Shown here: positions 17,560 to 48,113 of the stretch, one piece after another
Numbering within the stretch: the stretch's first letter is position 1
Layout of the letters: the number at the start of each line of letters is the position of its first letter
Assembly (NCBI GenBank): GCA_038316995.1
Contig: JBBQAZ010000001.1
Location: 1,281-65,280, forward strand
Direction of reading: 5' to 3'
From: Candidatus Saccharimonadales bacterium
Lineage (GTDB): Bacteria; Patescibacteriota; Saccharimonadia; Saccharimonadales; JAXHNE01
DNA length: 64,000 nucleotides
The notes under the pieces: model-generated
Told to the model about the DNA's origin: nothing
Seen by the model: only the letters and a program-made list of their open reading frames with translations
Databases searched by the model: none
Program-made: the position numbers and the translations under genes

Positions 17560-18468
17560 TTATTTTTTTACTGCAGATTTTTCTTGTGATGCTAGTAATT
17601 TTGCGGCCTTGTTCGTAACCCTCTTAGTGCCGCTCCACATTAAACGGATTTTACGAGGTTTAACTTTTTTATCAAATACTATCAGCGACTTCTTCTCAAT
17701 TACTTTAGCCGTCCAATTATACATTTCTATGGCAGTCTTTAGCGCACTCCTTAGGCGACTAGGTATAAATTCCATGCCATAGTCGGCTTCTTCCTGCCAC
17801 TTGTAGTACCGCTTCAGCTGAAACTGCATAAACCGATTAAAATCTGCCTGTTGAGCCAAAACTGTTTCACGGTTTAAGTCTTTCAAGTTGTAATTTCTTA
17901 GGTCGTTACGTGGAAAATATATCCGACCAAGCTGGTTGTCTTCATCTATATCACGGATAAAATTAATCCACTGCATGGCGCGTCCTTGGGCTTTGGCAGA
18001 TTCAAAAGACTCCTCCGGAAGTCCCATGATTTTAGCCATCATCAGACCAATTACCTCAGCTGATCCATACACATATTTTAATACCTCGTCAATATTGGCA
18101 TACCCTTGGTTATCTATGTCTTGTTTCATGGCGTCAAAAAACGCCTGAACCCACTCCGGGTCAAATTTATACTTATGCGTTAGACGAACGATGTGTTTTA
18201 TTACTAGCTCATCAAGTTCATCCCAACTGTGAGCAATTTGTTCAAAAGCTGGGTCGGCGATTGCTTTCTGCCAAGCTTTTTCTAGATTGAGTAGTTTTTT
18301 TGGTTGAGCTGGTTGCTCATCTACATAATCATCAGCTGTTCGAACAAAACTATACAGTGCAAAAATATCGTCCCTATATTTTTTAGGAAACAAACGACTA
18401 CTCCAATAATAAGTAGTACTACCTTTCTTGAAAATCTGCTTCTCGATTTTACCAGTAGTACGTGCCAT
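17560..18468 (-). CDS. phytoene/squalene synthase family protein
   Basis: Asp-rich motifs YSFVRTADDYVDE and FIRDIDEDNQLGRIYFP. Confidence 0.8.
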   Translation of the reverse strand: MARTTGKIEKQIFKKGSTTYYWSSRLFPKKYRDDIFALYSFVRTADDYVDEQPAQPKKLLNLEKAWQKAIADPAFEQIAHSWDELDELVIKHIVRLTHKYKFDPEWVQAFFDAMKQDIDNQGYANIDEVLKYVYGSAEVIGLMMAKIMGLPEESFESAKAQGRAMQWINFIRDIDEDNQLGRIYFPRNDLRNYNLKDLNRETVLAQQADFNRFMQFQLKRYYKWQEEADYGMEFIPSRLRSALKTAIEMYNWTAKVIEKKSLIVFDKKVKPRKIRLMWSGTKRVTNKAAKLLASQEKSAVKK

Positions 18469-19574
18469 TAACTTGTCCTTTTTAGTAAATACTGAGCCAA
18501 ACCAGTCAAAAAAGCCACGCCATCATTTGACCAAAGTTTTTTGTGGGGCTCAAGCGCTGATATTGCTTGTGCAGCGTGCTGTTTCGCCTGTTGTCGTGAA
18601 TATTCTAGCGCTCCTGACTCTTCGATAATTCTTTTGCACTGTTCGAATTCTACAGGGGAAATATTTTGATTTCCAAGAACCTGGATTAAAAAGTTTTTAT
18701 CAGCTTTACTGGCATGCTCAAGTGCGTACACGGTAAGAAGAGTCCTCTTTCCTTCGCGAATATCGTCCATCGGACTTTTGCCACTCTCTTGTTCAGTTCC
18801 AAATATTCCAAGAATATCGTCTGTAATTTGAAAAGCTTTACCAGCATGCATCGCATAATCGGTGATTGCGTCGGTCGCATGACAATCCGCGTTGGCAAGC
18901 ACCATGCCAACATGTAACGGATTAAGAAATGTATAGTGCGCGGTTTTCCATTCTAGTACGCGGTTGACTGCTGCTTCATCCACATCGGCCACGAGTTCAT
19001 TAACAATGTCATTGGTCTGCCCGTGCGCAGTTATTAACATTGTCTGGTTCATGATACTGAGTAGTTTGATCCGAATTTCTTCGCTACAGTCTAAATTAGC
19101 TAGGATAACTTCTGCCGCGTGTGCACCACCAAGCGCAGAATTAAGAGCTACAGCAATCCCAAAGTGTTCAGCGTCACCAGCCATGTGTTGTTCTTCGTGG
19201 TAGCGTTCTAATAATTTATGCGCAGCTGGACCACCGCGGCGAACAGCAGACCTGTCTTGAATGTCATCAATAATAAGTATGTAAGCTTGCATCATTTCAA
19301 GCGCTCTTGCAGCTTTAAGTGCAAGTTCCATATTTTGGCCGCCAGACATCTCATATCCAAGCATCACAAGTGCTCCACGAATACGCTTGCCACCCCGCGA
19401 TAAAATTTCAAAGTAGGCATCAGATGCAACGCGTGAATACTTCCCGTATTGTTGTAGCGTTGTTTTTGCAACATTTTTTGAATAGTCCGCTATGTCTGCG
19501 TCTATTGCCTCTTTGTATTCACCTAGCTTTGTATTAAAAACAAGCATTTGCAGGTCCTGTGTCATCTGAGTCAT
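18468..19574 (-). CDS. polyprenyl (GGPP/FPP-type) diphosphate synthase
   Basis: FARM is LIIDDIQD and SARM is ITDDILG. Has a 1-nt overlap with the downstream synthase gene. Confidence 0.85.
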   Translation of the reverse strand: MTQMTQDLQMLVFNTKLGEYKEAIDADIADYSKNVAKTTLQQYGKYSRVASDAYFEILSRGGKRIRGALVMLGYEMSGGQNMELALKAARALEMMQAYILIIDDIQDRSAVRRGGPAAHKLLERYHEEQHMAGDAEHFGIAVALNSALGGAHAAEVILANLDCSEEIRIKLLSIMNQTMLITAHGQTNDIVNELVADVDEAAVNRVLEWKTAHYTFLNPLHVGMVLANADCHATDAITDYAMHAGKAFQITDDILGIFGTEQESGKSPMDDIREGKRTLLTVYALEHASKADKNFLIQVLGNQNISPVEFEQCKRIIEESGALEYSRQQAKQHAAQAISALEPHKKLWSNDGVAFLTGLAQYLLKRTS

Positions 19575-25809: not shown

Positions 25810-27030
25810 CTATTCTAGATTTTTTAAGGTTTCTTGCCAGCGAGCACGAGTTTCTATTGCGGCTTTAAGGTCTGGCGTGGCTTTTTGAGTCAGCTCGCGG
25901 TAACCCGTGCTACTCCCAACGGCTTGGTAGCTAAGTGTGATATCAACCTTTTTCAGTTCTAGATCTTTGGCAAGTTCAAGACAATTATCTCCTCGCACTT
26001 CGCAGGTTCTACCTAAATCAAGCCAGGCTTGTACATTTTTATCGTAGTTTATCGTCATCTCGGCATCTATACTCAGTCCTCTGTTTGTCTCCGAATCAAG
26101 TTGGTCAAAAATAAAATTACCGGTTGAATAGACTACTAACTTTCCTTTGTAAGATTCGGTATTTTGTACCCAGTGAGCACTGTTTTCTATCACAAATTCT
26201 GGATCGTGATCGTCTATTAAATCATGGGCAATTGCGATTTGCTTAGGGTCGGCATTTGGACGATATTCTACCCCAACCTGAGAAAACGCAAACACAGGCA
26301 TAATTTCTGCATACTTGTCCATTTCTGCTAGCTCTCCTGGAGCTGGATCTTTTTCAAAATAGTGCCATGCGCAAAACGCAATTGGAAGCGTTCCGTCTTC
26401 TTCGGTTCCGTCCTTTTTTTGCAAGCGAACTTTCATGGCAATGACTTCACAGATTTCATCTGTTTCGCGTGGGTCCCAGTGACCGACAGTTTGGATTCCT
26501 GCTGATTCTAAGAATCGCACCGTATCTGTGTAGCCTTCATCGCCCTGGTCACGAGTATGATTGTTTGCAACATTTGCCACAGTAAAATGTTTTGCGAGTT
26601 CAGGCGCGAACTCATCCGGACAATTGAAGACAGTGTTTTGGACCTGTGTTTGATATGGAATATCATTCTGGGTCATTGGGCATTCAAAATCGACCATCCA
26701 GCCATCATATTGATCTGGATTAAAAGTATCAAGCTTGCTAAATGGCTGTGCATAATCAACACTTCCATCTGCACGACGTGCTTCGTTTTCAACTGCTCGC
26801 GCCGGCACAATTGTTCCACTAAACAAATACCTGCCTTTTACAGATACGATGTCTGATTCAGCAGTGGTATTCTGTTGGTTGTTTGCATGCGTTTGTTCTG
26901 GCTCAGTTGTGCCGCGATTTTGCCACGAAAACAGGCCAATACCAATCGCAACAATTAACACTCCAATTATTGCTGCTTTGAGCCGCTCAGGATGCGAACT
27001 ATCACCATGTGCATATTTTTTCGCCCTCAT
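25810..27030 (-). CDS. CapA-like (metallophosphatase-fold) envelope protein, membrane anchored
   Basis: CapA-like VANNHTRDQG and ENSAHW, with an N-terminal TM helix. I chose the start at MRAKKY (27030) because a TATACT box lies 8 nt upstream. The ORF track extends to 27105. Confidence 0.7.
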   Translation of the reverse strand: MRAKKYAHGDSSHPERLKAAIIGVLIVAIGIGLFSWQNRGTTEPEQTHANNQQNTTAESDIVSVKGRYLFSGTIVPARAVENEARRADGSVDYAQPFSKLDTFNPDQYDGWMVDFECPMTQNDIPYQTQVQNTVFNCPDEFAPELAKHFTVANVANNHTRDQGDEGYTDTVRFLESAGIQTVGHWDPRETDEICEVIAMKVRLQKKDGTEEDGTLPIAFCAWHYFEKDPAPGELAEMDKYAEIMPVFAFSQVGVEYRPNADPKQIAIAHDLIDDHDPEFVIENSAHWVQNTESYKGKLVVYSTGNFIFDQLDSETNRGLSIDAEMTINYDKNVQAWLDLGRTCEVRGDNCLELAKDLELKKVDITLSYQAVGSSTGYRELTQKATPDLKAAIETRARWQETLKNLE

Positions 27031-27038
27031 ATCTATGT

Positions 27039-27046
27039 AGTATAGT
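27039..27046. promoter_or_regulatory. overlapping divergent -10 boxes in a 23-bp intergenic spacer
   Basis: Plus-strand TATAGT (27041-27046) lies 7 nt before ATG 27054. Minus-strand TATACT (27039-27044) lies 8 nt before ATG 27030. Confidence 0.45.
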
Positions 27047-27053
27047 AGCAGAT

Positions 27054-27902
27054 ATGAGACGAAGAGTTTTAATTTTATTAGGGGTGATAGCATTGGCAAC
27101 TGCAATTTTTATTGCCTATATTTTATTAAAACCGCACAAAGTAACTAGCCCGTCATTACAAACACAAACATTAGAAGAAGTGACGCAACCCTCTATACCA
27201 GAAAAACCAGCCCTGGTTGATGTTCAGCCGATCATTGATACCTGGGCAGCAAAACAAACCGGAGATTATTCAGTTGTGGTCTACGACTTAGAAAACGATC
27301 AAACAATTGGTGCTGTAAATCAGGATCAAATATATTTTGCAGCCAGCATTTATAAATTATACGTAGCATACGAAGGCTACTTGGCTGCACAGCGCGGAGA
27401 CTACGATTTGCAAGAAATATATCTGAACGGCCAAAGTCGTGGGGAATGTTTATTTAAAATGATCCACGAATCAGATAGCCCCTGTGCTGAAAAACTCTGG
27501 GTTGAGCTTGGAAAATCTGAGCTGACTGCAAAACTAGAAACTTACGGCATCAAGAACACCTCAATGACCGCAATTAACACCACGGCTCAAGATGCTGCGC
27601 TGCAGCTTATTCGTCTCTGGAATAACGACGAATTAAATGAAGCAAATAAGGCTACAATGCTCAAATCTATGGCAACGCAAATTTACCGCGACTCACTTGC
27701 CAAAGGCTTTAGCAGTGTTACATTTTATGACAAAGTTGGCTTTAATGGTTTCGAAGAATATCATGATGTTGGTATATTAGAGCTTCCAAATGGACGACAT
27801 TACGTCGTGAGCGTATTAACAAGCGAAGTCGGCACGGCTGCAATGACTGAACTCGGTACAAAATTATTAGCAGCGCTGACAGATGAATCAACGACTGAAT
27901 AA
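27054..27902 (+). CDS. class A beta-lactamase-like serine hydrolase, membrane anchored
   Basis: SxxK in AASIYK, an SDN-like SDS, and a KTG-like KVG. N-terminal TM helix. I chose the start at MRRRVLILLG. Confidence 0.7.
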   Translation: MRRRVLILLGVIALATAIFIAYILLKPHKVTSPSLQTQTLEEVTQPSIPEKPALVDVQPIIDTWAAKQTGDYSVVVYDLENDQTIGAVNQDQIYFAASIYKLYVAYEGYLAAQRGDYDLQEIYLNGQSRGECLFKMIHESDSPCAEKLWVELGKSELTAKLETYGIKNTSMTAINTTAQDAALQLIRLWNNDELNEANKATMLKSMATQIYRDSLAKGFSSVTFYDKVGFNGFEEYHDVGILELPNGRHYVVSVLTSEVGTAAMTELGTKLLAALTDESTTE

Positions 27903-28656
27903 AAAAACTTTAACTCTCGGGGCGATTGTAATCGTTATTTTGGTTGTTACTTTTTTTGTACTCACTTCTAGAAAGAAAAGTATTAAGCCAAGTCCAGTGA
28001 ACACACAACAAGCAACCTTAGACAAGCCAGAAGAGGTAGTTGAACAAGAACCAAATACAGCCCAAATACCCTCTTATGACCTGACTACACCAAGCAGTAT
28101 TACTTTCATTGCCAACAAGACACGCCCCTTGCCTGCAAGCTACGAACCCACAGATCTGATAACTCCAGATGTAAAATTGCGTCTTGGTGCTGGTGCAGAA
28201 CAAATGCAGTTTAGGAACGTTGCACATGCAGATATAAAGGAGATGTTTACAGCTGCAAAGAATGACGGGGTAACATTAGTATTTGGAAGTGGTTACCGAT
28301 CATACTCGTTGCAGAAACAATTTTATGACGGATATGTAGCACGTGACGGCGTTGCAGCTGCAGACAGTTACAGTGCTAGGCCTGGGACCAGCGAACATCA
28401 AACTGGATTATCGTTTGACGCGACCTCCGTTTCACAAACCTGCCACTTAGAAATCTGTTTTGAAAACACGACCGAAGGCAAATGGCTAGCTGCCAATGCC
28501 CACGAATACGGCTTTGTGCTTCGCTACCCCAACGGCAAAGAAGCTATCACCGGCTACCAATACGAACCTTGGCACTTCCGTTACCTAGGTCTAGAACTAG
28601 CATCAAAAATTAATACATCAGAAAAAACAGTCGAAGAATTTTTTGAATTAAATTAA
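27883..28656 (+). CDS. VanY/M15B D-alanyl-D-alanine carboxypeptidase
   Basis: Motifs SEHQTGLSFD and EPWHFRY. N-terminal TM helix. Confidence 0.85.
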   Translation: MNQRLNKKTLTLGAIVIVILVVTFFVLTSRKKSIKPSPVNTQQATLDKPEEVVEQEPNTAQIPSYDLTTPSSITFIANKTRPLPASYEPTDLITPDVKLRLGAGAEQMQFRNVAHADIKEMFTAAKNDGVTLVFGSGYRSYSLQKQFYDGYVARDGVAAADSYSARPGTSEHQTGLSFDATSVSQTCHLEICFENTTEGKWLAANAHEYGFVLRYPNGKEAITGYQYEPWHFRYLGLELASKINTSEKTVEEFFELN

Positions 28657-29873
28657 AATTCAGTTGAAGCGATTATGGGAATGGATGTGTGAGTGTTGAG
28701 TAGTTTTGTGACTCGGTCCATTTGGGCTTCTACTGTTGTACCTAGTTGCGACTTTGCAAGAAGTTCGGCAGATTGATCAAGTGGTACCATCTTAAAGTTT
28801 TTACGAGCCAGTAAATTGTTTGCTGCTTTTTCTGCTGCCGTCCATTCATAATGTTGGTACACGGGCATAAAGCCAATACTCTCTACCTTTTTTGTACTTG
28901 GGCTAATTTCCATAGAGGCGAATCCGCCAATTAAGGTCCCTGCATCAATCTGAGAGTTCAAGAAGTTTCCGAGACTATACCACACGTATACGTTGCGATC
29001 CTGACTGCCTTTAAGTACCTTTACGGGTTGCATAGCATGTGGTCCATGCCCAAAAATTACGTCAGCGCCATAACTGGCCAGTTTTTGAGCAACTTCGTCT
29101 TGACGAGTATTAATGCTTGGTGAATATTCTGTTCCCCACCGCATGCTCACTATCACAAAGTCAACTTGGTCTCTAATAGCAACGATTTGCTGTTCAGCAA
29201 AAGCGTCACTATACCTATTTACTCCGTACTCGTTCGCAAGTGGGCTGTTTGTATAGTCTGTGTAAGCAACAAAACCAAACTTCATTCCTTTTACCTGAAC
29301 TAATCGCGGCTTGTCCTGTTCCTCTTTCGATCTATTGGCACCCGCAACCAACACCTTACGCTCATCCCAAGCTGCAACCGTAGCATCGATTAACGCCTGG
29401 CCTTTGTCATTGGTGTGATTGGTGCCAATATTCACGACATTACACCCAACGTCTTCAATGCCACGTGGAAACGCAACTGGCGCATTGAAAACAGGATAGC
29501 CAGTAATTCCAAAAGATTCACCACCAGCAGGAGTTGATTGATTGCAAAAGTTTAAATCACCTTTTGCAAAATACGGTTTCATGTCGGTCATGAGTGAAGA
29601 ATAGTCGTAACTTCCGTCAGCCTTTTTGGCGTTTTCATTTATTGAATCGTGGGCAATCATGTCCCCTGTTGCGAGTAGTCGAACATTGGAAAAATCTTGT
29701 GATGCATCTGTAGATTGCTGTTGAGAATTTGCTGCCGGGGCTGGCGCACCACCGGGTTGATTCCTACTAAGTGGTTTGTTTTTTACATAATAAATCCCGC
29801 CAAGCACTCCAGCTGACACTAAAAGTAGCACAATCGTTATTAAGACTACTTGTTTTTTAGAAAACTCTATCAT
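28653..29873 (-). CDS. CapA-like (metallophosphatase-fold) envelope protein, membrane anchored
   Basis: Motifs GDMIAHD, GTNHTND and GHGPH. N-terminal TM helix. Confidence 0.75.
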   Translation of the reverse strand: MIEFSKKQVVLITIVLLLVSAGVLGGIYYVKNKPLSRNQPGGAPAPAANSQQQSTDASQDFSNVRLLATGDMIAHDSINENAKKADGSYDYSSLMTDMKPYFAKGDLNFCNQSTPAGGESFGITGYPVFNAPVAFPRGIEDVGCNVVNIGTNHTNDKGQALIDATVAAWDERKVLVAGANRSKEEQDKPRLVQVKGMKFGFVAYTDYTNSPLANEYGVNRYSDAFAEQQIVAIRDQVDFVIVSMRWGTEYSPSINTRQDEVAQKLASYGADVIFGHGPHAMQPVKVLKGSQDRNVYVWYSLGNFLNSQIDAGTLIGGFASMEISPSTKKVESIGFMPVYQHYEWTAAEKAANNLLARKNFKMVPLDQSAELLAKSQLGTTVEAQMDRVTKLLNTHTSIPIIASTEF

Positions 29874-35182: not shown

Positions 35183-35881
35183 TTATCGTCTGTCTCTAGC
35201 AGCATGTGGGCGAGCATACATCGCCAAGTTCCAAACCACTCCGTAAGTGCTGGAAAGCAGAATGAAAAAACTTACGGTAGTAACGAATGCGCTCGGGGAC
35301 GAAGGGTCGATAAACTGATTACTGGCGTCAAACAAAATTCCAGCAGGATGCAGAAAAACGTCCCAACTATTCCAGCGCAAAAATCTTCCTAAAAATATTG
35401 CAAAACTTGTGACGAACAACACTGCAGCAATAACAAGATGTGCATCCCTGCGACGCACTCGGCGGGCAAGCTCTGCATGAACCAAGTACAAGCTGGCATA
35501 CCCCGTAAAGAAACCATTTACAATAAAGCTCATAAACATCACGACATCATAATAAATATTAACTTCAAAAGTCTGATGAAGGTGAATCAAATCTGTAATA
35601 AGATAAAAACTATTTGGTAAAAACAGTAGCCAGAATATCGTTAGTAACAAATTCTTCCATTCTAACCAAGAGCTTTTGGCCAGCTGATTACGAAGCCATA
35701 CACTCAAGACCAAAGGCAGAACAGCCAAAAGCATATTCCACACTAAAAAGTAATATCGAGGATTCCCTGCGTCTACTGTCCTCGCAATCAACAAAAGCAA
35801 GCTACTGAAGTGCGCCAAAATAAGAGAAACAACTATCCTCTTTATGTAATTACCACGAAGTTGCAACAACTTCTTTTTCAT
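35183..35881 (-). CDS. polytopic membrane protein (possibly DUF1361-like)
   Basis: I chose the start at MKKKLLQL because TGCTATAAT lies 6 nt upstream. The ORF track extends to 36076. Confidence 0.5.
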   Translation of the reverse strand: MKKKLLQLRGNYIKRIVVSLILAHFSSLLLLIARTVDAGNPRYYFLVWNMLLAVLPLVLSVWLRNQLAKSSWLEWKNLLLTIFWLLFLPNSFYLITDLIHLHQTFEVNIYYDVVMFMSFIVNGFFTGYASLYLVHAELARRVRRRDAHLVIAAVLFVTSFAIFLGRFLRWNSWDVFLHPAGILFDASNQFIDPSSPSAFVTTVSFFILLSSTYGVVWNLAMYARPHAARDRR

Positions 35882-35887
35882 AAGGCA

Positions 35888-35896
35888 ATTATAGCA
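35888..35896 (-). promoter_or_regulatory. extended -10 TGCTATAAT, 6 nt from ATG 35881 (leaderless)
   Basis: Read directly on the minus strand. Confidence 0.5.
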
Positions 35897-35921
35897 TCCG
35901 AAATAAAGTCTAACTAAAATC

Positions 35922-35954
35922 ATATTGACATATTTAAATGTATCAATATATACT
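35922..35954 (+). promoter_or_regulatory. ArsR-gene promoter (TTGACA-18-TATACT) with an overlapping inverted repeat ATATTGACA/TATCAATAT
   Basis: The -35 box is at 35925-35930 and the -10 box at 35949-35954, with ATG 35961 six nt later. The 9-bp inverted-repeat arms (1 mismatch) lie at 35922-35930 and 35941-35949. Confidence 0.5.
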
Positions 35955-35960
35955 GCATGC

Positions 35961-36230
35961 ATGTCTGATGCGCAAATTATCACTATTTTAAAAGCCTTAT
36001 CGGATACAACGCGACTAGATATTGTCCGTTCGCTTGCAAAAAAAGGTTGCGAAACTAGTTGTAACGACGCAAGCACCTGCTCTGACCTAAGCCAGCCAGC
36101 GCTAAGTCATCATTTTAAAAAACTAGTAGATGCTCAGGTTTTAACAGAAAGAAAGAAGGGTAAGCAAAAATACTACTGCATTAACGAGACCGCCCTGCTC
36201 CGCGCAGGAATTGATATAACAAAACTTTAA
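35961..36230 (+). CDS. ArsR/SmtB-family transcriptional regulator
   Basis: ILKALSDTTRLDIVRSL...LSQPALSHHFKKLVDAQVL (winged helix-turn-helix). Confidence 0.8.
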   Translation: MSDAQIITILKALSDTTRLDIVRSLAKKGCETSCNDASTCSDLSQPALSHHFKKLVDAQVLTERKKGKQKYYCINETALLRAGIDITKL

Positions 36231-36243
36231 AACAAGGAAAAAT

Positions 36244-36777
36244 ATGAAATTATTAGTAGTAATTGGAAGTGTAAGAGAAGGACGCGCCGGTGATGCCATT
36301 TCCCGTATGGTCACAAATCAGCTAGAAGAAAGTGGTGCTTCATTTAATGTGGCTGACTTAAAAGAACTTGACTTGCCATTTTTGAATCAAGAAATTGAAC
36401 CAAGCGATTCTGATAAAAAATACGACGATGCGAGAGTGCAAAAATGGTCAAATATGGTGGATGAAGCTGACGCTTTTATATTTGTAACACCAGAATATAA
36501 TCACGGCCCTCCAGCTTCACTTAAAAATGCACTCGATTGGCTCTACCCAGAATGGGAAAACAAGCCTGCTGCAATAGTTGCCTACGGCGGCATGGGCGGT
36601 GTTCGCGCAATTGAACAACTAAAACTAAATATGCTTACTTTGAAACTATTCCCTGTTGCAGATGTTCCAATACCTGGTTTTAAAAATTATATTAGTGATG
36701 GAGTGCTCGAAAATGATCGAGCAGAAAAAAATGTCTTAAGGTCTGTTGAGGCGCTTGCGAACTTCAAGCTTCGCTAA
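36244..36777 (+). CDS. NADPH-dependent FMN reductase
   Basis: Motifs LLVVIGSVREGR and FVTPEYNHGPPASLKNALDW. Confidence 0.8.
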   Translation: MKLLVVIGSVREGRAGDAISRMVTNQLEESGASFNVADLKELDLPFLNQEIEPSDSDKKYDDARVQKWSNMVDEADAFIFVTPEYNHGPPASLKNALDWLYPEWENKPAAIVAYGGMGGVRAIEQLKLNMLTLKLFPVADVPIPGFKNYISDGVLENDRAEKNVLRSVEALANFKLR

Positions 36778-36807: not shown

Positions 36808-37446
36808 ATGAGCGGAGTACTAGACGCGGTTCGTAATATCATACGCAATAGAATGCGGGCAATTGCTCGTGGAGTTAATCAACTGTCTGGCGGAAAAATC
36901 ACTCCAAACATGGTTACAATAACCAGTTTGATTGCGCATATTCCAATTACCTATGCAATAGCTACTGATAAATTATTATTATCGGCGATATTGCTTGTTA
37001 TTTTTGGCCTTATGGACGCGCTAGACGGTGAACTTGCGCGGCTTCAGGGCAAAGCATCGGCGGCTGGCATGCTACTCGACGCCAGTACCGACAGAATGAA
37101 AGAAGTGCTTATATATATTGGTGTGGCTTTTACGCTAAGTGTAAATGGCTCGAGTATTTTTGCGACAGAATATTTGGTGTCATTTGTAGTTGCGGCGTGT
37201 GGTGGATCGCTATTAGTGAGCTATGTGAAAGCAAAGGGCGAAACTGCGGTGCGCGACAGCACACTTACTGCAAATGAAATAAACCGACTATTCCAAGACG
37301 GGCTCATGCGCTACGAAATACGAATGATGGTGATTATTATTGGACTTGTATTTAATGCCTTAGATATAACGATTCTTCTTATAGCAATTCTGGCGTGGCA
37401 AACAGCTTTAAAGCGACTATTCACTATTCATCGGAGACTTAGCTAA
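36808..37446 (+). CDS. CDP-alcohol phosphatidyltransferase
   Basis: Signature DALDGELARLQGKASAAGMLLDASTDR, matching D-x2-D-G-x2-A-R...G-x3-D-x3-D. Multiple TM helices. Confidence 0.85.
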   Translation: MSGVLDAVRNIIRNRMRAIARGVNQLSGGKITPNMVTITSLIAHIPITYAIATDKLLLSAILLVIFGLMDALDGELARLQGKASAAGMLLDASTDRMKEVLIYIGVAFTLSVNGSSIFATEYLVSFVVAACGGSLLVSYVKAKGETAVRDSTLTANEINRLFQDGLMRYEIRMMVIIIGLVFNALDITILLIAILAWQTALKRLFTIHRRLS

Positions 37447-38099
37447 TGTTTAAGGTTGATTTACATACGCACTCCGAAGCCTCGCCCGACGGGGGCATAT
37501 CGCTTGCAGACTACAAAAAAATTCTTGAGAAAAAAACCCTCGACGTCGTGGCTATTACCGATCACAACCGCGTTGCATTTGCACAAGAAGCCCAAAAAGA
37601 GCTTGGTGAAAAAATTATAGTGGGCGAAGAGATTATGACAAGTGATGGCGAGATTATCGGACTATATTTAACTGATTTAGTACCGCCAAATCTGACCGCT
37701 ACAGCTACGATAAAAGCTATAAAAGACCAAGGTGGGCTTGTATATATTCCTCATCCTTTTGAATCAGTCAGAAAAGGTATTCATCCAAAAATTTTAGAGA
37801 AGTTGCAGGATCGAATTGACATTATAGAAGTATGTAACGGTAGAGCATTCCTGCAAAATCGGGGCAAGCAAGCGCTTGTCTGGTCACGCATAAACAATAT
37901 TCCAGGTTCGGCGAGTAGCGATGCTCACGGGGTCAAAGGTCTCGGCAAGACGTACTGTGATTTCGAGAAACTACCCACTAAAGAGTCGTTAATTCAGCAA
38001 CTCAAAACTGCAAAATTAATAACTGACAGGCCGTCCGTCCGTGCCCTGCTCTATCCTAAATTTCATCGCACTCGCAAAAAACTAAGAGGCGTAAAATAA
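37446..38099 (+). CDS. PHP-domain phosphoesterase
   Basis: N-terminal DLHTHSEASPDG. TAATG overlaps on both sides. Confidence 0.75.
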   Translation: MFKVDLHTHSEASPDGGISLADYKKILEKKTLDVVAITDHNRVAFAQEAQKELGEKIIVGEEIMTSDGEIIGLYLTDLVPPNLTATATIKAIKDQGGLVYIPHPFESVRKGIHPKILEKLQDRIDIIEVCNGRAFLQNRGKQALVWSRINNIPGSASSDAHGVKGLGKTYCDFEKLPTKESLIQQLKTAKLITDRPSVRALLYPKFHRTRKKLRGVK

Positions 38100-38608
38100 T
38101 GAGCTGGTTCGCGGCGTTTTTATTTTTCCTGCCAGCCGGTATCGCCAACACTACTCCGGTATTTGTTAACAAAATACCTACACTAAACAGATGGAAGACA
38201 CCGCTTGATTTTGGAAAGTCTTGGAAAGGTGTTCGAATTTTTGGGGAAAATAAAACATGGCGAGGGCTTGTTTGCGGAATGCTCGTTGCGGCTATTACTG
38301 GTTGGATTATAGGACAAACTGCATCATCAGTTATTATGTCTCCGCTAATTGGAGCTGCGCTTGGTGCCGGCGCTTTGATAGGCGATGCGCTTGAAAGCTT
38401 CTTAAAAAGGCGACACGGCATAGATTCTGGAAAAAAATGGTTCCCTTTTGATCAAACAGATTACATTATCGGAGGATTACTGTTTGTTTTGCCACTTACA
38501 AGTCTAACTCTCCAGTTAGTTCTGCGCATTTTTATACTATATTTTGGACTGCACTTGCTGGTTGCTTTTCTTGCTTTCAAAGTTGGTTTAAAAGACTCCC
38601 CTATTTAA
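38099..38608 (+). CDS. carS: CDP-archaeol synthase (CarS/DUF46) homolog
   Basis: PLDFGKSWKGVRIFGENKTWRGLVCG and GALIGDALESFLKRRHGI align by eye with archaeal CarS (PIDFGK...LGDGKTWRGF, GDLCGSFIKRRFG). 169 aa with about 5 TM helices. Confidence 0.8.
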   Translation: MSWFAAFLFFLPAGIANTTPVFVNKIPTLNRWKTPLDFGKSWKGVRIFGENKTWRGLVCGMLVAAITGWIIGQTASSVIMSPLIGAALGAGALIGDALESFLKRRHGIDSGKKWFPFDQTDYIIGGLLFVLPLTSLTLQLVLRIFILYFGLHLLVAFLAFKVGLKDSPI

Positions 38609-38629: not shown

Positions 38630-39340
38630 TTACTTTGCCCTAACAAATGCTTCTATTTTCTGCATCTGTTTTAGCTTTTCCTCGCCCAAGGCAAATAGTC
38701 TCTCTGTTTGGGAGGGCATTACTTTTAGCGCCTGACACTTTTTTTCTAACGTCTCTTCGTCTAATGTAATACATAAATCGCAGGATGAAACTGGAACAAT
38801 CGGCGGTGAATCAATGTTAAAAAACATATTGAATTTAGCATCAGCTTCTTTGTTGGCTTCGAATTCTTCTGGAGTCATTACTACGTGATACACCTTGATT
38901 CCTCGGGCTTGGCCAATTTTAGTTGCCCATTTTGAAACTGCCTTATGATCTGGGTGGCCTGTCATCCCATCTGGACCAAAGGTAATAATACTGTCTGGAT
39001 TACATTCGTCAATACATTGCTCTATCATCTTGAATCCCTGCTTGTCAGGAACTGCCGTGAGTCCTCCGTCCGGATAATCAAACCAGCAATGTCTTAAAAC
39101 GCCTAGCTTTTCATATGCAGCCTCGAGTTCATTAGAGCGTATCTTGCCAAGTCTTGCAGCCGGCCATCTAGCTTCGTCTTGAACTCCTGCTTCCCCGCGG
39201 GTGGCTGTCATACACATAACCTGTTGACCATTTGCAGCGGCCAGCGCCATGACACCTCCACAAGTAAAAACTTCGTCGTCTGGATGAGCCCAAACACCCA
39301 ATATAGTCCCAAGTTTTTGAACGTGCGAAGCAACGTCCAT
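38630..39340 (-). CDS. PIG-L/LmbE-family deacetylase
   Basis: Motif ILGVWAHPDDEVF. Confidence 0.8.
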   Translation of the reverse strand: MDVASHVQKLGTILGVWAHPDDEVFTCGGVMALAAANGQQVMCMTATRGEAGVQDEARWPAARLGKIRSNELEAAYEKLGVLRHCWFDYPDGGLTAVPDKQGFKMIEQCIDECNPDSIITFGPDGMTGHPDHKAVSKWATKIGQARGIKVYHVVMTPEEFEANKEADAKFNMFFNIDSPPIVPVSSCDLCITLDEETLEKKCQALKVMPSQTERLFALGEEKLKQMQKIEAFVRAK

Positions 39341-39346
39341 GATTTC

Positions 39347-40381
39347 CTACTTACCGAGCTCTTGTTTAAATTTCTCTATTAATCCAACTGGGGATGGGTC
39401 CAATCCGTTTAGCAGTGCTACGTAAATACTCACGAAATCGCCAAAAGCCACAGCCCAAAGTAATTGTTGCAGAATTGTCTCTCCTTGCACATTCACAATC
39501 TCAGGTGCTGGTCGTTTACCCGAAAGAAGTCTCTCGGTCACTTCAAAGCGTTTTTGAATACGCTCGTGTTCTAAATTACTCCGAAGATCAATTATTTTGT
39601 ACGGCTTTTCTACTGGATGCGACGTCCAACCCATAAACTCATTGTGGTTAAATTCGGGGTACTGGTTACACCATGCGACGTTTTTAGCGTTCTCGTTAAA
39701 GCTAATTTTCCACTTGTAGGCCGCTGGGAAAAGTTTTGGCCCAGCATAAATTACTGGTGAAGCACCTGCAAGCTCAATTGCTAGTTGCTTGGCCGGATTT
39801 TTACTCACTGGCGTATCGGCTCCCCAGCTTTGCATAGATTGAGCCAAAAATGTGCTCGCATCTGCCATTTCTTTTTCTGCTGATTCTTTATTTATGAGTT
39901 GCGCGTGCTCTAAAATAGTGACATAAGCTTTTAGGGCATAAAAAACTGCAAACCTAGGCTGCTCAACCTTGGGTATAACTTCATATGGATAGTTTTTTAC
40001 CCGGGCAAGCTCAATCAACTTTCCGCCACCGGCAAGTATGACAATTTGGGCCCCTGTATTTTCTGCTGCCGCAAGTGCTGAAACGGTTTCTTCGGTGTTT
40101 CCAGAATAACTAGAAGCTATAAACAAGGTGTTTTCGTTTACGTAGGCTGGAATTTCATACTCACGAACAATCTCAAATGGCACATGATAATCTGGCCAAG
40201 TAGTGCTGAGTAGTCCAGCAAGCGCTGAACCGCCCATACCTGCCAAAGCGACATTTTTGATTTCTGCGGTTGGTTGCCAATCTAATGAAAACTGATGTGT
40301 TAATTGATCTGCTTGGCGTCCTGCAATACCCAGCGCGTCGCTTCCGTCTTTTTGATGAATATACTTTAAATCGTCAAGCAT
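39347..40381 (-). CDS. bifunctional phosphoglucose/phosphomannose isomerase (SIS domain)
   Basis: Motifs GMGGSALAG and IASSYSGNTEETV. Confidence 0.8.
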   Translation of the reverse strand: MLDDLKYIHQKDGSDALGIAGRQADQLTHQFSLDWQPTAEIKNVALAGMGGSALAGLLSTTWPDYHVPFEIVREYEIPAYVNENTLFIASSYSGNTEETVSALAAAENTGAQIVILAGGGKLIELARVKNYPYEVIPKVEQPRFAVFYALKAYVTILEHAQLINKESAEKEMADASTFLAQSMQSWGADTPVSKNPAKQLAIELAGASPVIYAGPKLFPAAYKWKISFNENAKNVAWCNQYPEFNHNEFMGWTSHPVEKPYKIIDLRSNLEHERIQKRFEVTERLLSGKRPAPEIVNVQGETILQQLLWAVAFGDFVSIYVALLNGLDPSPVGLIEKFKQELGK

Positions 40382-45350: not shown

Positions 45351-48113
45351 ATGCCACAAAATATCACCCCTGAAGGCACTGTACTACTCCTCCAGGTGCC
45401 GCGAACAAACGAAAAAAAAGAGCTTGCCGCAGAGCAAATGCTTGCTTCCTTGCACGGCTTGCTTTACAGGGGTAAAAACGGATTATTTAGCAAAAGCAAC
45501 CGCGAACACATTAGTTTTGAAATAGCGGTCAAAAACAAACGAATCGGCTTTTATGTATGGGTGCCATCATCACTTAAAAACTTTGTTATTGAACAAATAT
45601 ACGCTCAGTACCCAACCGTGCACATTTCAGAGGTAGAGGATTATGCGGACTTAAGCGTCAACACTTCCCCAACTCGTATGACAGCCGAACTTAAGCTCAC
45701 CTCCCCACAACAGCTCCCAATCAAGACTTTCCCTAGCTTTGAGGTAGATCCACTTGCAGCAATTACCGCTACGTTGGCCCAGTTTACAGAGCACGAAGAA
45801 GCTTGGATTCAGGTAATTGTACGCCCGGCCGGGGACAGTTGGCACAAAGCTAGCGAACGCTACATTGCAACCATGAAAGGTAGTGGCAGTGGCGGACTAA
45901 CAAAGGCTCTTTGGACGCCTCCAGAAGGGTCAACACAGCCAAAACTAGCCGAACACCAGACAGCTCGTATTTCTGCGGCAGAAACAAAAGCCCAAAAACT
46001 TGGTTACGATGTTTGTGTACGCATAGTTTACGCTGGGCAATCGTCCGAGGCCGAGGCAAAAATGCGTCTGCAATCAATCATTGCTAGTTATAAACAGTTT
46101 AATTCAACGTACCTAAACGGCTTTGCCTCGCGCTTCATAGACACGAAACCGGCGCATATTGAGGCTTTTTCAGAAAGAAAACTCACAAACAGCTACGTGT
46201 GTAACATCGAAGAAGTCGCCAGCTTATTCCACCTGCCGCACACCAATGTAGAAACCCCAAACATTCTTTGGGCAAACGCCGCAACAGCCGAACCACCAGC
46301 CAATCTACCGCTGGTTGAAGGCGCAATAAAAGACACAATTAGCCCTATGGCCGTAACTAACTTCCGCGGCCACAACACCCCGTTTGGAATCAACCGCAGC
46401 GACCGTAGCAGACACATGTACATCATCGGTCAAACTGGTGTTGGTAAATCCGCCTTGCTTGAAATCCTGACAATCGCAGACATCCACAGCCCATACGGTT
46501 TTGCCGTAATCGATCCGCACGGTGATTACGCAGTTAATATCCTAAAACGTATTCCACGAGAGCGCGTCAAGGACGTTATTTATTTCAACCCTGCCGATAC
46601 TGACTTCCCGATTGCCTTTAATCCTATGGAAGTTACCGACCCCAAACTAAAAACCCACACCGCATCAGAGCTGATTGGCGTATTAAAGCGCATGTTTGAG
46701 TCATGGGGACCACGTCTTGAATATATTTTGCGCTACAGCTTGCTAGCATTACTTGATTATCCAGACTCAACTATGTTGGACATTACCCGAATTTTGACGG
46801 ATAAAAAGTTCCGCGACGAAGTCCTCACCTATGTTGAAGACCCAGTTGTACGCAACTTCTGGGAAGTTGAATTTGCCAGCTGGAACGCTAAATTCCAGGC
46901 AGAAGCCGTAGCACCGGTACTCAACAAAGTTGGTGCATTTACCGCAAACCCAGTGGTCAGAAACGTTATTGGACAACCAAAAAGTAGCTTTAACATCCGC
47001 AAAATAATGGATGACCGCAAAATTTTGATAGTAAACCTTACTCGTGGATTAATTGGTGAAGACAATGCCAGCCTACTTGGAGCGCTTTTGGTAACCAAAA
47101 TACAGATGGCCGCCATGAGCCGTGCCGACATGGAACTAGAAGAGCGCGTACCGTTTTATCTCTATGTGGACGAATTCCAAAACTTTGCCACCGACAGCTT
47201 TGCAACAATTTTATCCGAAGCACGTAAATATGCACTAAATTTAACAGTTGCCAACCAGTACACCGCCCAGATGAGCCAAGAAGTTAAAGATGCAGTCTTT
47301 GGCAACGTAGGATCAATCGTCACTTTCCGCACCAGCGCCGACGATGCCCGCACAATGACCAAATACTTTGAACCGCATTTTACAGATCATGACATTGTTC
47401 ACATGCATAACCGCGACACGGCTATAAGTATGATTATCGAGGGCGAAAAAGTTCCTGCTTTTTCTGCCGCTACCCTGCCGCTGCCAGAATTTGGAGAAAA
47501 CTTTTCCAAAACAATCATTGATAACACTCGGGAGCAATTTGCAGCCAACCGCTCCGACATTGAAGCCTATATGAACGATCGCTACGGCAAGGAAATAAAA
47601 AAGCTCAGTGGCGATAAAAACTCCTTCCCAAAACTAAAGCTTGAGCCAAAAACAGAAGTTGAGAATAATACTGATAAAAACCCGGTTAAAATCAGTAAAG
47701 AATCTGAAACCACGGCTTCCACTACTCCAGAAAATAAGCATGAAAAAGAGCCTCAAACCACGCCAGCTGCCAATACCGATCCAAAAACTAGTGCAAAAGG
47801 TTTGATTAGGCTTGCAACCAAGACAGATTCAACAGATAAGATAGTGGAATCTCAGCCATCAGCTGAAAGCGCAGAAGAAAAGCCAAAGAAAAAACGCCGC
47901 AGACGACGACGCAAGTCTAAATCAGTGGAAACGCCTCAAGAAGTTTCTAATATATCAGCAGAGAAAAAACCCGAACCAAATAAGCAAAAACCTACCAAGA
48001 AGGCAGAAGCTCAATTAAAAACCCCAATTGCCTTACCAAAACCAAAAACCGACACCATGGTTGTCCCTAAAAACGGCGAACAATCCGACGAAACAATCAT
48101 TGACCTCCGCTAG
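45351..48113 (+). CDS. soluble type IV coupling protein-like (TraD/VirD4/DUF87-type) P-loop ATPase with an N-terminal ~340-aa unknown domain and a Lys/Arg-rich tail
   Basis: Walker A GQTGVGKS, then VIDPHGDY, Walker B FYLYVDEFQNF, and LTVANQYTAQM. The C-terminal ~170 aa are disordered and include KKPKKKRRRRRRKSKS. Confidence 0.8.
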   Translation: MPQNITPEGTVLLLQVPRTNEKKELAAEQMLASLHGLLYRGKNGLFSKSNREHISFEIAVKNKRIGFYVWVPSSLKNFVIEQIYAQYPTVHISEVEDYADLSVNTSPTRMTAELKLTSPQQLPIKTFPSFEVDPLAAITATLAQFTEHEEAWIQVIVRPAGDSWHKASERYIATMKGSGSGGLTKALWTPPEGSTQPKLAEHQTARISAAETKAQKLGYDVCVRIVYAGQSSEAEAKMRLQSIIASYKQFNSTYLNGFASRFIDTKPAHIEAFSERKLTNSYVCNIEEVASLFHLPHTNVETPNILWANAATAEPPANLPLVEGAIKDTISPMAVTNFRGHNTPFGINRSDRSRHMYIIGQTGVGKSALLEILTIADIHSPYGFAVIDPHGDYAVNILKRIPRERVKDVIYFNPADTDFPIAFNPMEVTDPKLKTHTASELIGVLKRMFESWGPRLEYILRYSLLALLDYPDSTMLDITRILTDKKFRDEVLTYVEDPVVRNFWEVEFASWNAKFQAEAVAPVLNKVGAFTANPVVRNVIGQPKSSFNIRKIMDDRKILIVNLTRGLIGEDNASLLGALLVTKIQMAAMSRADMELEERVPFYLYVDEFQNFATDSFATILSEARKYALNLTVANQYTAQMSQEVKDAVFGNVGSIVTFRTSADDARTMTKYFEPHFTDHDIVHMHNRDTAISMIIEGEKVPAFSAATLPLPEFGENFSKTIIDNTREQFAANRSDIEAYMNDRYGKEIKKLSGDKNSFPKLKLEPKTEVENNTDKNPVKISKESETTASTTPENKHEKEPQTTPAANTDPKTSAKGLIRLATKTDSTDKIVESQPSAESAEEKPKKKRRRRRRKSKSVETPQEVSNISAEKKPEPNKQKPTKKAEAQLKTPIALPKPKTDTMVVPKNGEQSDETIIDLR

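Follow-up and report, generated by a model that had tools for sequence, protein, structure and literature searches.

In textbooks, the divide between archaeal and bacterial lipids is marked by CarS on one side and CdsA on the other. Characterized archaeal CarS enzymes strongly prefer DGGGP over phosphatidate, and an E. coli cdsA mutant is not rescued by AfCarS (PMC9385802). Bacterial PI synthesis requires a PIP phosphatase. For Actinobacteria and Archaea, this enzyme was called “as-yet-unidentified” (PMC4634129; PMC9385802); it is known only from Bacteroides, where it belongs to the PgpA family (PMC9246714). That enzyme, BT_1525, is encoded in the BT_1522-1526 cluster together with a PIP synthase and MIPS and without a CDP-lipid synthase (Heaver et al. 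2022, PMC9246714). The class I transferase signature, D1xxD2G1xxAR...G2xxxD3xxxD4, and the roles of individual residues in the PIP synthase MtPIPS, including R155 and R195, an arginine pair that holds inositol phosphate by its phosphate, have been established (PMC4634129). For T. rhizospherense, Starr et al. (2018) predicted the route PA -> CDP-DAG -> PI (-> PIMs) from scavenged lipid, via orthologs of the three genes described here (PMC6031116). The polar lipids of a CPR-enriched size fraction were acylglycerols only (PMC7242380). A literature search found no paper treating CarS in Saccharibacteria or the CPR.

Here, we analyzed a 64-kb stretch of Saccharibacterial (CPR) DNA, referred to as the window, in which an earlier note, made from the letters alone, had singled out a CarS-like gene translationally coupled to a CDP-alcohol phosphatidyltransferase and a PHP phosphoesterase. 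The organism is a bacterium of an uncultivated type. The three plus-strand open reading frames were confirmed in the ORF list of the window (Table 1), and all of the peptide strings that the note had quoted were found in their translations. TAATG occurs at both junctions (37444-37448 and 38097-38101), where one base is common to stop and start, in agreement with the 1-nt overlaps that had been placed at 37446 and 38099, and Shine-Dalgarno-like GGAG/AGAGG sequences can be read ∼11 to 14 nt 5′ of the second and third ATG. On balance, we favor the interpretation that the trio is an operon, conserved among Saccharibacteria, that (re)synthesizes phospholipid head groups on scavenged lipid and is not an archaeal-lipid pathway.

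Table 1. Features of the window discussed in the text, with positions counted from its first nucleotide
Feature	Positions	Strand	Product length	Family or evidence	Remark
Squalene/phytoene synthase, HpnD/HpnC/CrtB-like	17560-18468				Boundary base common with polyprenyl synthase; translationally coupled
Polyprenyl synthase	18468-19574	-		PF00348, 181.9 bits
DUF1361 integral membrane protein	35183-36076	-		PF07099, 134 bits	Divergent; ORF as listed probably over-extended at 5′ end
Promoter-like site, near consensus	35925-35954	+		TTGACA-18-TATACT	11/12 positions
ArsR-type regulator	35925-36230	+		HTH_5/HTH_20	Likely start ATG 35961
NADPH-dependent FMN reductase	36244-36777	+		FMN_red
CDP-alcohol phosphatidyltransferase, class I, PIP/AIP-synthase-like	36808-37446	+	212 aa	PF01066
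PHP-family (COG0613/TrpH-like) metal-dependent phosphoesterase	37446-38099	+	217 aa	PF02811 + PF13263
CarS-family CTP:lipid-phosphate cytidylyltransferase	38099-38608	+	169 aa	PF01864
PIG-L/LmbE-family de-N-acetylase	38630-39340	-		PF02585, 112 bits	Convergent
Bifunctional phosphoglucose/phosphomannose isomerase	39347-40381	-		bact-PGI_C, 153 bits	Convergent

The arrangement is widely kept. A non-redundant set of 81 loci was drawn from GTDB species representatives, almost all of which are Saccharibacteria. The trio is contiguous in 72 of these loci, with junctions that mostly overlap by 1 to 14 nt and with variable flanking genes; a close relative of the CarS-like protein is encoded by 425 species representatives. 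The PHP gene adjoins the CarS gene in 78 of the 81 loci, three species have this pair without the transferase at the locus, and two have transferase and CarS without PHP. In the Ca. Nomurabacteria protein USN53187.1 (1.08-Mb contig CP060223.1), CDP-OH transferase and CarS-like domains occur in a single polypeptide, as they do in one further protein (330 to 336 aa for the fused forms), and this fusion links the two activities, with the CarS product serving as donor for the transferase.

Genes around the trio are less constant. An ArsR-type regulator and an FMN reductase, separated from each other by 13 nt and from the transferase by 30 nt, are probably co-transcribed with the trio in this lineage; a scan from the promoter-like site on the regulator side to the end of the operon at 38608 found no further plus-strand promoter-like site. 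The pair precedes the trio in just 6 to 14 of the 81 relatives and is therefore not a core component of the operon. The DUF1361 gene is present in 67 of the 81 loci and adjoins the operon in 51, and the isomerase gene, whose product exceeds the TIGR02128 cut-off (215.6 versus 213.9 bits), is present in 76. The PIG-L protein resembles BshB and MshB only weakly, at scores below threshold, and 44 of the 81 relatives have its gene within the locus. A tie between this gene and a glycosylated inositol lipid is possible but unproven; we did not adopt such a link for the convergent PIG-L and isomerase genes, given the broad synteny of these genomes and the fact that PIG-L directly adjoins the operon in only 27 of the 81 loci.

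The 169-aa protein is a member of the CarS family (PF01864) with an intact polar core. It matches PF01864 over profile positions 7 to 174 of 175 (E = 3.1e-26; 92.8 bits, cut-off 22), which bears out the earlier reading of homology along the whole length, and it scores slightly below the cut-off of the NCBIfam model PRK04032 (CDP-2,3-bis-(O-geranylgeranyl)-sn-glycerol synthase; 134.4 bits, cut-off 148). Among PDB sequences, ApCarS (5guf) is matched at E = 1.8e-14 and TmCdsA (4q2g) at E = 0.054. The AF2 model (pLDDT 94) is predicted to contain five long helices, giving the five-transmembrane-helix CarS fold, and superposes on 5guf in Foldseek with TM scores of 0.77/0.82 and an rmsd of 2.2 Å over 156 columns at 31% identity, versus TM scores of 0.36 to 0.45 for CdsA. 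Residues N17, D37, K52, G95-D96, S100, K103-R104, D118-Q119, and D121, a conserved polar set in the region of the CTP/metal site, are invariant in an alignment of 31 orthologs and identical in ApCarS. The protein thus resembles archaeal CarS (ApCarS 5GUF; AfCarS) in family, length, and fold, shares with ApCarS the GD...S.KR and DQ.D motifs, and occupies the equivalent pathway position, immediately before a CDP-alcohol phosphatidyltransferase. It differs in carrying GDAxES, with an E-S pair as in TmCdsA, where ApCarS has GDMAGS.

The note's “not bacterial CdsA” likewise stands, since neither a full-length CdsA match nor a CdsA fold was found. The CdsA family (PF01148; TmCdsA 4Q2E/4Q2G) belongs to the same superfamily, and the chemistry that we propose is common to both (CTP + lipid phosphate -> CDP-lipid + PPi), yet only the C-terminal catalytic segment finds a match (PF01148, residues 51 to 112, 31 bits), and the protein has 169 aa versus 261 to 290 residues in the TmCdsA PDB chains. 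The physiological role is probably the same. The complete genome of T. rhizospherense has a published KO table, whose listed entries reach at least gene_1467 at 1.386 Mb and in which the same trio appears as gene_1167 (210 aa, K17884), gene_1166 (215 aa, K07053/COG0613), and gene_1165 (186 aa). The last is called cdsA at only 31.7 bits, and “cytidylyltransferase” appears once among the entries listed, so that this is apparently the only such enzyme there. Starr et al. (2018; PMC6031116) treated the 186-aa protein as cdsA without remarking on its archaeal-type family, gave the PHP gene no role, and did not remark on operon conservation or fusion. The three-gene organization that the note called uncharacterized had thus been described in part, its genes having already been used to predict PA -> CDP-DAG -> PI.

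We propose the following scheme. The CarS-family membrane enzyme would first react CTP with a diradyl-glycerol phosphate, for which host-derived diacyl phosphatidate is the likeliest candidate, to give the CDP-activated form and PPi, and would thus make the lipid donor of the operon. The transferase would then move the phosphatidyl group from the CDP-lipid onto a phosphorylated alcohol, releasing CMP, and the PHP phosphoesterase would strip the head group of its terminal phosphate (PIP -> PI), a role assigned purely from the logic of the operon. The separate PgsA and the cardiolipin synthase of Saccharibacteria would draw on the same CDP-lipid pool; in the T. rhizospherense table, pgsA (K00995) is a bona fide gene of its own, and a cardiolipin synthase is also listed. 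Because one pool would serve the trio, PgsA, and cardiolipin synthase, we propose, from this one published annotation table and the entries listed in it, that the CarS-type enzyme stands in for the absent CdsA in these bacteria. Against a diacyl substrate is the preference of characterized CarS enzymes for DGGGP and their poor handling of diacyl phosphatidate (PMC9385802), and under the scheme the specificity would have changed within the family.

The third step could be assigned differently. The PHP protein is soluble and exceeds the cut-offs for PHP (PF02811, 34.1 bits) and PHP_C (PF13263, 28.5 bits). All 28 orthologs compared keep its candidate metal ligands (H7, H9, D15, H40, E61/E62, H103, C130/N131, D159, and H161) and its tail, RALLYPKYHRLRKKL, unchanged. 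The AF2 model (pLDDT 86) matches PHP structures with a Foldseek probability of 1.0, the top matches being the RNase AM PHP, BVU_3505, TM0559, and Cv1693 (TM 0.57 to 0.71), none of which is lipid related. An anti-phage defense role was rejected, as the PADLOC matches are trivial and confined to the N-terminal PHP motifs. The closest structural relatives of the PHP protein, the pAp phosphatase Cv1693 and RNase AM, are nucleotide/RNA enzymes, and it could be a merely co-transcribed phosphoesterase of that kind. Alternatively, it could support the CarS reaction, for example by hydrolyzing scavenged phospholipids at the head group, or lipid pyrophosphates, so as to yield phosphatidate, or through PPi removal. 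The KOfam assignment of the ortholog (K07053), the three species that keep PHP with CarS where the transferase is missing, and the conservation of this protein above that of its partners (mean identity to the proteins of the window of 57%, versus 53% and 51%) fit such roles.

We nonetheless consider it unlikely that the PHP protein acts elsewhere than on the head group. It is tightly coupled in translation between two membrane lipid enzymes at 72 of 81 loci, and its conserved basic, amphipathic C-terminal helix (predicted at residues 198 to 214) suggests action at the membrane surface, where it would hold the enzyme. The operon encodes no other phosphatase, and a two-step PIP or PGP route would otherwise be left without one. 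The note's idea of a head group added and then dephosphorylated is reasonable, and we retain the protein as a candidate head-group (PIP/PGP-type) phosphatase, although IMPase-family proteins in T. rhizospherense are conceivable alternatives as PIP phosphatases. The Bacteroides cluster similarly joins a PIP synthase with a phosphatase, which is here the candidate PHP enzyme and there a PgpA-family protein.

The acceptor of the second step is most likely L-myo-inositol-1-phosphate, as judged by family resemblance and active-site residues. The transferase matches PF01066 (CDP-OH_P_transf) at 48.4 bits (cut-off 22), and its four top NCBIfam models (archaetidylinositol-P synthase, 99.3 bits; PIP synthase, 72.3; BT1523-type, 48; and DIPP synthase, 41.6) all describe enzymes that use inositol-1-phosphate. 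Mycobacterium and Renibacterium PIP synthases rank first in sequence/profile comparison with the PDB. The complete D70xxD73G74xxA77R78...G87xxxD91xxxD95 motif is present, and its eight defining residues are invariant or nearly so in 24 orthologs. S138 and K141 align with S132 and K135 of MtPIPS and R203 with R195, while R172, in an RxxxR stretch, corresponds to R155 only indirectly, through an alignment with the RxxR of AF2299. R172 and R203 are invariant in the same 24 orthologs, whereas position 141 is K or N, with N in about half. The eight-residue signature and the arginine pair are thus held in common with the actinobacterial and archaeal PI pathway (PgsA1/MtPIPS, RsPIPS, and AIP synthase), and its two-step logic with a need for a phosphatase is implied here too; the differences are that the synthase is operon linked to a CDP-lipid synthase and a PHP gene and that MIPS was not detected in the window.

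Neither the window nor the T. rhizospherense table entries listed (K01858) contain an inositol-1-phosphate synthase; the proposed acceptor would need to be scavenged, or be something else. Glycerol-3-phosphate or another phosphorylated alcohol or sugar could take its place, with PHP as the matching phosphatase (for example, of PGP), and several observations agree with this: no NCBIfam equivalog cut-off is reached by the transferase (NF040950 AIP synthase, 99.3 versus 180; NF045883 PIP synthase, 72.3 versus 170), the arginine pair binds the phosphate of the acceptor and so suits any phosphorylated acceptor, and sugar-phosphate enzymes and a de-N-acetylase are neighbors. We judge a different acceptor to be distinctly unlikely, however, since the PgsA model scores only 17.9 bits where the AIP synthase model reaches 99 and the PIP synthase model 72, T. 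rhizospherense has a separate pgsA, and PIP synthases rank first among PDB profile matches.

The earlier note went further and saw in the trio the heart of an isoprenoid-lipid route of archaeal style with CDP activation, pointing to a GGPP-type synthase elsewhere in the window. That synthase is real, and a short-chain (GGPP/FPP-type) enzyme would suit a pathway in which the CarS homolog activates an ether lipid of isoprenoid type (DGGGP/archaetidic acid or a similar prenyl-glycerol phosphate, made or scavenged) toward an archaetidyl-inositol-type product; so would the closeness of the protein to archaeal CarS over CdsA in sequence and fold, the DGGGP preference of characterized CarS, and the archaeal AIP synthase model as the single top NCBIfam match of the transferase. 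The remaining evidence does not support the claim. The synthase is translationally coupled to a squalene/phytoene-synthase homolog and not to glycerol prenyltransferases, and these two are the only isoprenoid genes in the window. Pfam/NCBIfam annotation of essentially every window ORF of at least 100 aa found no GGGPS, DGGGPS/UbiA, G1PDH, GGR, PlsX/Y/C, CdsA, or MIPS in the 64 kb; of a complete archaeal ether-lipid pathway (G1PDH, GGGPS, DGGGPS, CarS, and GGR), only the CarS homolog was found, along with the short-chain prenyl diphosphate synthase.

This protein, unlike archaeal CarS, therefore occurs in a bacterium in whose window no DGGGP-producing enzymes were found. Nor are GGGPS, DGGGPS, G1PDH, or PlsX/Y/C (K17104, K17105, K00096, K08591, K00655, and K03621), the mevalonate pathway, or acyltransferases among the KO table entries listed for the T. 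rhizospherense genome. Cultivated Saccharibacteria, moreover, are known from actinobacterial and not from archaeal hosts, and the acylglycerol polar lipids of CPR-enriched fractions (PMC7242380) point the same way. The genomic context argues against DGGGP/archaetidic acid specificity of the CarS-like protein, and a genuine archaeal-type pathway is very unlikely.

Returning to head-group synthesis on scavenged lipid, we tentatively consider a milder claim, about which we remain less than evenly convinced: that CarS has replaced CdsA across the CPR with a switch to diacyl phosphatidate and that the PHP enzyme represents a new, non-PgpA class of PIP/PGP phosphatase. This is considerably more likely than the version in which the CarS-type enzyme handles isoprenoid/ether glycerolipids in Saccharibacteria and other CPR bacteria and mixed or archaeal-like membranes are built or remodeled, which we regard as highly doubtful.

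If Saccharibacteria, Dojkabacteria, Nomurabacteria, and others depend on a CarS-type enzyme as their sole CDP-lipid synthase, the substrate range of the family would be broader than supposed, and the evolution of this step, whether by ancient sharing or by transfer between CPR and Archaea, would have to be revisited. The PHP gene offers a concrete candidate for the PIP (or PGP) phosphatase, the step called unidentified in Actinobacteria and Archaea (PMC4634129; PMC9385802). The operon would be where lipid-auxotrophic epibionts turn stolen host lipid into head-group classes of their own; it would then plausibly be essential and may provide a handle on host dependence.

A CDP-alcohol phosphotransferase, a PHP phosphoesterase and a homologue of archaeal CDP-archaeol synthase (CarS) follow one another as a trio, and TAATG at both junctions (37444-37448 and 38097-38101) gives each TAA stop and the next ATG one base in common. 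GGAG/AGAGG motifs lie approximately 11 to 14 nt 5′ of the PHP and CarS-like start codons. The observation in the earlier note is confirmed: its 1-nt overlaps were read from the window, every peptide string it quoted occurs in the translations, and Pfam profiles recovered the three families it had named. Its interpretation is partly supported; the archaeal-style CDP-activated isoprenoid-lipid route that it proposed is not.

Features of the window discussed in the text
Feature	Position	Strand	Remarks
SQS/PSY-family squalene/phytoene synthase, 302 aa	17560-18468	-	best models HpnD, HpnC, CrtB, all sub-threshold
Short-chain polyprenyl diphosphate synthase ("GGPP-type"), 368 aa	18468-19574	-	
PGA_cap (CapA-like)	25810-27105	-	
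Beta-lactamase family	27009-27902		between PGA_cap genes
VanY D-Ala-D-Ala carboxypeptidase	27883-28656		between PGA_cap genes
PGA_cap (CapA-like)	28653-29873	-	
DUF1361 ORF as listed, 297 aa	35183-36076	-	GTG start
Sigma-70-like near-consensus promoter	35925-35954	+	TTGACA-18-TATACT
arsR ORF	35925-36230	+	likely start ATG 35961
ArsR-type regulator and NADPH-dependent FMN reductase	35925-36777	+	5′ of trio; gaps 13 and 30 nt
CDP-OH_P_transf protein, 212 aa	36808-37446	+	PF01066, 48.4 bits
PHP protein, 217 aa	37446-38099	+	PF02811 PHP, 34.1 bits; PF13263 PHP_C, 28.5 bits
CarS-like protein, 169 aa	38099-38608	+	PF01864, 92.8 bits, E 3e-26, near full-length
PIG-L/LmbE-family de-N-acetylase and bifunctional phosphoglucose/phosphomannose isomerase	38630-40381	-	convergent on trio
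920-aa protein	45351-48113	+	TrwB/type-IV coupling-protein and HerA/DUF87 ATPase domains

That the third protein is not bacterial CdsA, as first proposed by eye, is borne out. The CdsA family PF01148 covers residues 51-112 alone, the catalytic segment (31 bits, Pfam); in PDB sequence comparison Aeropyrum pernix CarS (ApCarS, 5guf) matches at E 1.8e-14 and Thermotoga CdsA (TmCdsA) barely, at E 0.054; and an AlphaFold model from 31 orthologues (pLDDT 94) superposes on 5guf with TM 0.77/0.82, rmsd 2.2 Å and 31% identity, versus just TM 0.36-0.45 on CdsA. The NCBIfam CDP-archaeol synthase equivalog gives 134.4, narrowly short of its cut-off of 148. Because its orthologue-invariant polar residues N17, D37, K52, GD96, S100, K103-R104, D118-Q119 and D121 are common to ApCarS, the enzyme looks catalytically intact; a small difference is its GDAxES motif, as in TmCdsA, where ApCarS has GDMAGS.

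At NCBI its nearest homologues, 50-72% identical, bear the name "CDP-archaeol synthase," under Candidatus Saccharibacteria / Saccharimonadales; the window's own copy is on an NCBI contig of 65.8 kb. Scanning one genome per GTDB species found a close relative in 425 species, the best 80 of which are almost all Saccharibacteria. Among 81 non-redundant loci, the PHP gene adjoins CarS in 78, a transferase gene occurs in 75, and 72 have all three genes in this order, with overlaps mostly of 1 to 14 nt. Flanking genes (ArgRS, DUF1361, PIG-L, PGI/PMI) are frequently syntenic, yet their distance and presence vary, and "T. rhizospherense," a Saccharibacterium with a complete genome and published KO table, has wholly different flanks around an intact trio: gene_1167 (210 aa, K17884), gene_1166 (215 aa, K07053/COG0613) and gene_1165 (186 aa) (Starr et al. 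2018, PMC6031116). In one Saccharibacterium (L004 9828-10004, on a contig of 978 kb) there sits between PHP and CarS a called ORF of 58 aa that matches no family and overlaps both.

At E<=0.001, remote CarS relatives number 1,897 cluster representatives, and two of these are fusions of 330-336 aa (P0378, P0354), with an N-terminal CDP-alcohol transferase and a C-terminal CarS domain. One transferase-CarS fusion belongs to a Ca. Nomurabacteria genome of 1.08 Mb (CP060223.1, L085 8001-8993), where it lies between gyrB and secE-nusG-rplK. Such fusion independently points to the CarS product as the donor substrate for the transferase. The fusion's transferase domain is only ~150 aa, so that some of the customary six-helix acceptor module may be absent. 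In Dojkabacteria loci (L081 5055-5987; L087/L088/L089 7067-7990) the CarS-like gene is beside neither partner; directly 5′, overlapping or after a 10-nt gap, is a conserved protein of 307-310 aa that matches no Pfam family (37% identity between two copies compared) and could be an alternative functional partner of CarS.

We infer, at somewhat better than even chances, a scheme operating on scavenged lipid. The CarS-type enzyme would be the cell's CDP-lipid synthase, using a diradyl-glycerol phosphate, most likely diacyl phosphatidate; the PIP/AIP-synthase-like transferase would pass the phosphatidyl group to a phosphorylated alcohol, most likely inositol-1-phosphate; and the PHP enzyme, which a basic helix would keep at the membrane, would take off the terminal phosphate. 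Behind the scheme stand observed family memberships, intact active-site motifs, the conserved operon and the fusion; the lipid substrate, the acceptor and the PHP substrate are its inferred parts. Counting against the scheme, one partner is occasionally missing from the operon: at this locus three species have PHP-CarS only and two have transferase-CarS only. A WS6/Dojkabacteria genome has CarS alone.

The PHP protein is soluble, retains the full invariant set of candidate metal ligands (H7, H9, D15, H40, E61/E62, H103, D159, H161) and ends in a conserved basic segment, RALLYPKYHRLRKKL, predicted to be helical. Its structural neighbours are of the TrpH/COG0613 kind (RNase AM, TM0559, BVU_3505 and the pAp phosphatase Cv1693; TM 0.57-0.71). 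No lipid-acting enzyme is among them, so its own substrate does not follow from similarity; that its relatives are nucleotide or RNA enzymes weighs against the scheme. We consider a role other than head-group dephosphorylation unlikely. A defence-system role was rejected, as no meaningful match to defence-system models was found. In the literature examined a single PIP phosphatase has been identified, BT_1525, and it is of the PgpA family rather than PHP (PMC9246714); the actinobacterial and archaeal enzyme was called unidentified by Clarke 2015 (PMC4634129) and de Kok 2022 (PMC9385802).

The transferase carries all eight residues in the signature for class-I CDP-alcohol phosphotransferases (D70, D73, G74, A77, R78, G87, D91, D95). 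Its top four NCBIfam models, AIP synthase (99 bits), PIP synthase (72), BT1523-type (48) and DIPP synthase (42), all have L-myo-inositol-1-phosphate as acceptor; PgsA gives 18 bits, and none reaches its equivalog cut-off. With a 24-orthologue profile the best PDB matches are PIP synthases of mycobacteria and Renibacterium. In the mycobacterial enzyme (MtPIPS), the inositol phosphate is bound through its phosphate by R155 and R195, with contributions from S132 and K135 (Clarke et al., PMC4634129). S138/K141 align with S132/K135 and R203 with R195; R172, within an RxxxR stretch aligning with the AF2299 RxxR motif, is indirectly the R155 counterpart. R172 and R203 are invariant among orthologues, and position 141 is K or N. 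We consider a different phosphorylated acceptor improbable. A point against the scheme is that MIPS is absent from the window annotation and from the "T. rhizospherense" KO rows examined (K01858).

That the CarS-type enzyme uses a true isoprenoid or ether substrate is very doubtful. Two points nevertheless count against our scheme, the preference of characterised CarS enzymes for DGGGP and the failure of AfCarS to complement E. coli cdsA (PMC9385802). Besides MIPS, the window lacks GGGPS, UbiA-type DGGGPS, G1PDH, PlsX/Y/C and CdsA, as judged by annotating practically every ORF in it. The prenyl diphosphate synthase that it enlisted shares boundary base 18468 with the HpnD/HpnC/CrtB-like gene (HpnD and HpnC are presqualene and squalene synthase), so its product goes elsewhere. 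Besides K01858, the KO rows examined, reaching at least 1.386 Mb, hold no K17104, K17105, K00096, K08591, K00655 or K03621, and no mevalonate enzymes, acyltransferases or diacylglycerol kinase; GGGPS, DGGGPS and G1PDH are missing there too, and the isoprenoid route is not supported. The table includes separate pgsA, cardiolipin synthase, phospholipase D, GGPP synthase, uppS and two IMPase-family genes, and the sole "cytidylyltransferase" among the rows examined is gene_1165, labelled "cdsA" on a 31.7-bit match (PMC6031116). A CPR-enriched size fraction contained acylglycerol polar lipids only, and Probst et al. concluded that CPR get fatty-acid lipids from other cells (PMC7242380); scavenged PA to CDP-DAG to PG/CL/PI was already proposed by Starr et al. 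(PMC6031116). A squalene/phytoene-type synthase is unexpected in a reduced Saccharibacteria genome; "T. rhizospherense" lists a "questionable" squalene-hopene cyclase besides GGPP synthase (PMC6031116).

Around the trio, the ArsR/FMN-reductase pair is inserted in a minority of relatives only. The sigma-70-like promoter ends 6 nt before the likely arsR ATG, which suggests a leaderless transcript. The DUF1361 ORF overlaps arsR and this promoter on the opposite strand; since its homologues have 179-253 aa and its Pfam match begins at residue 113, translation probably begins far downstream of the listed start. To the convergent PIG-L and isomerase genes a cupin mannose-6-phosphate isomerase is added in some relatives (L001 11249-11683). 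As deacetylases of GlcNAc-PI and of GlcNAc-inositol belong to the PIG-L enzymes, a link to a glycosylated inositol lipid is conceivable from synteny. Elsewhere, the genes of 25810-29873 resemble a small cluster for remodelling the cell wall or capsule, and small ORFs without family matches surround the TrwB/HerA protein.

In its working the trio resembles the bacterial/archaeal PI (or PG) route, whose two steps are supplied by a CDP-lipid synthase. Three things set it apart: this synthase, in a bacterium, is of the archaeal CarS family and apparently replaces CdsA; three steps share one translationally coupled operon, with fusion in Nomurabacteria; and the candidate phosphatase is a PHP-family protein. 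The genes themselves are not new: "CDP-archaeol synthase" is already their database name for the CarS-like one, and the operon figures in the metabolic model of Starr et al. (PMC6031116), so that "uncharacterised" was too strong for the three-gene organisation. The CarS family identity, operon conservation, fusion and PHP hypothesis were discussed in no paper found. A bench test is worthwhile, for simple assays would inform on both the lipid divide and CPR host dependence.
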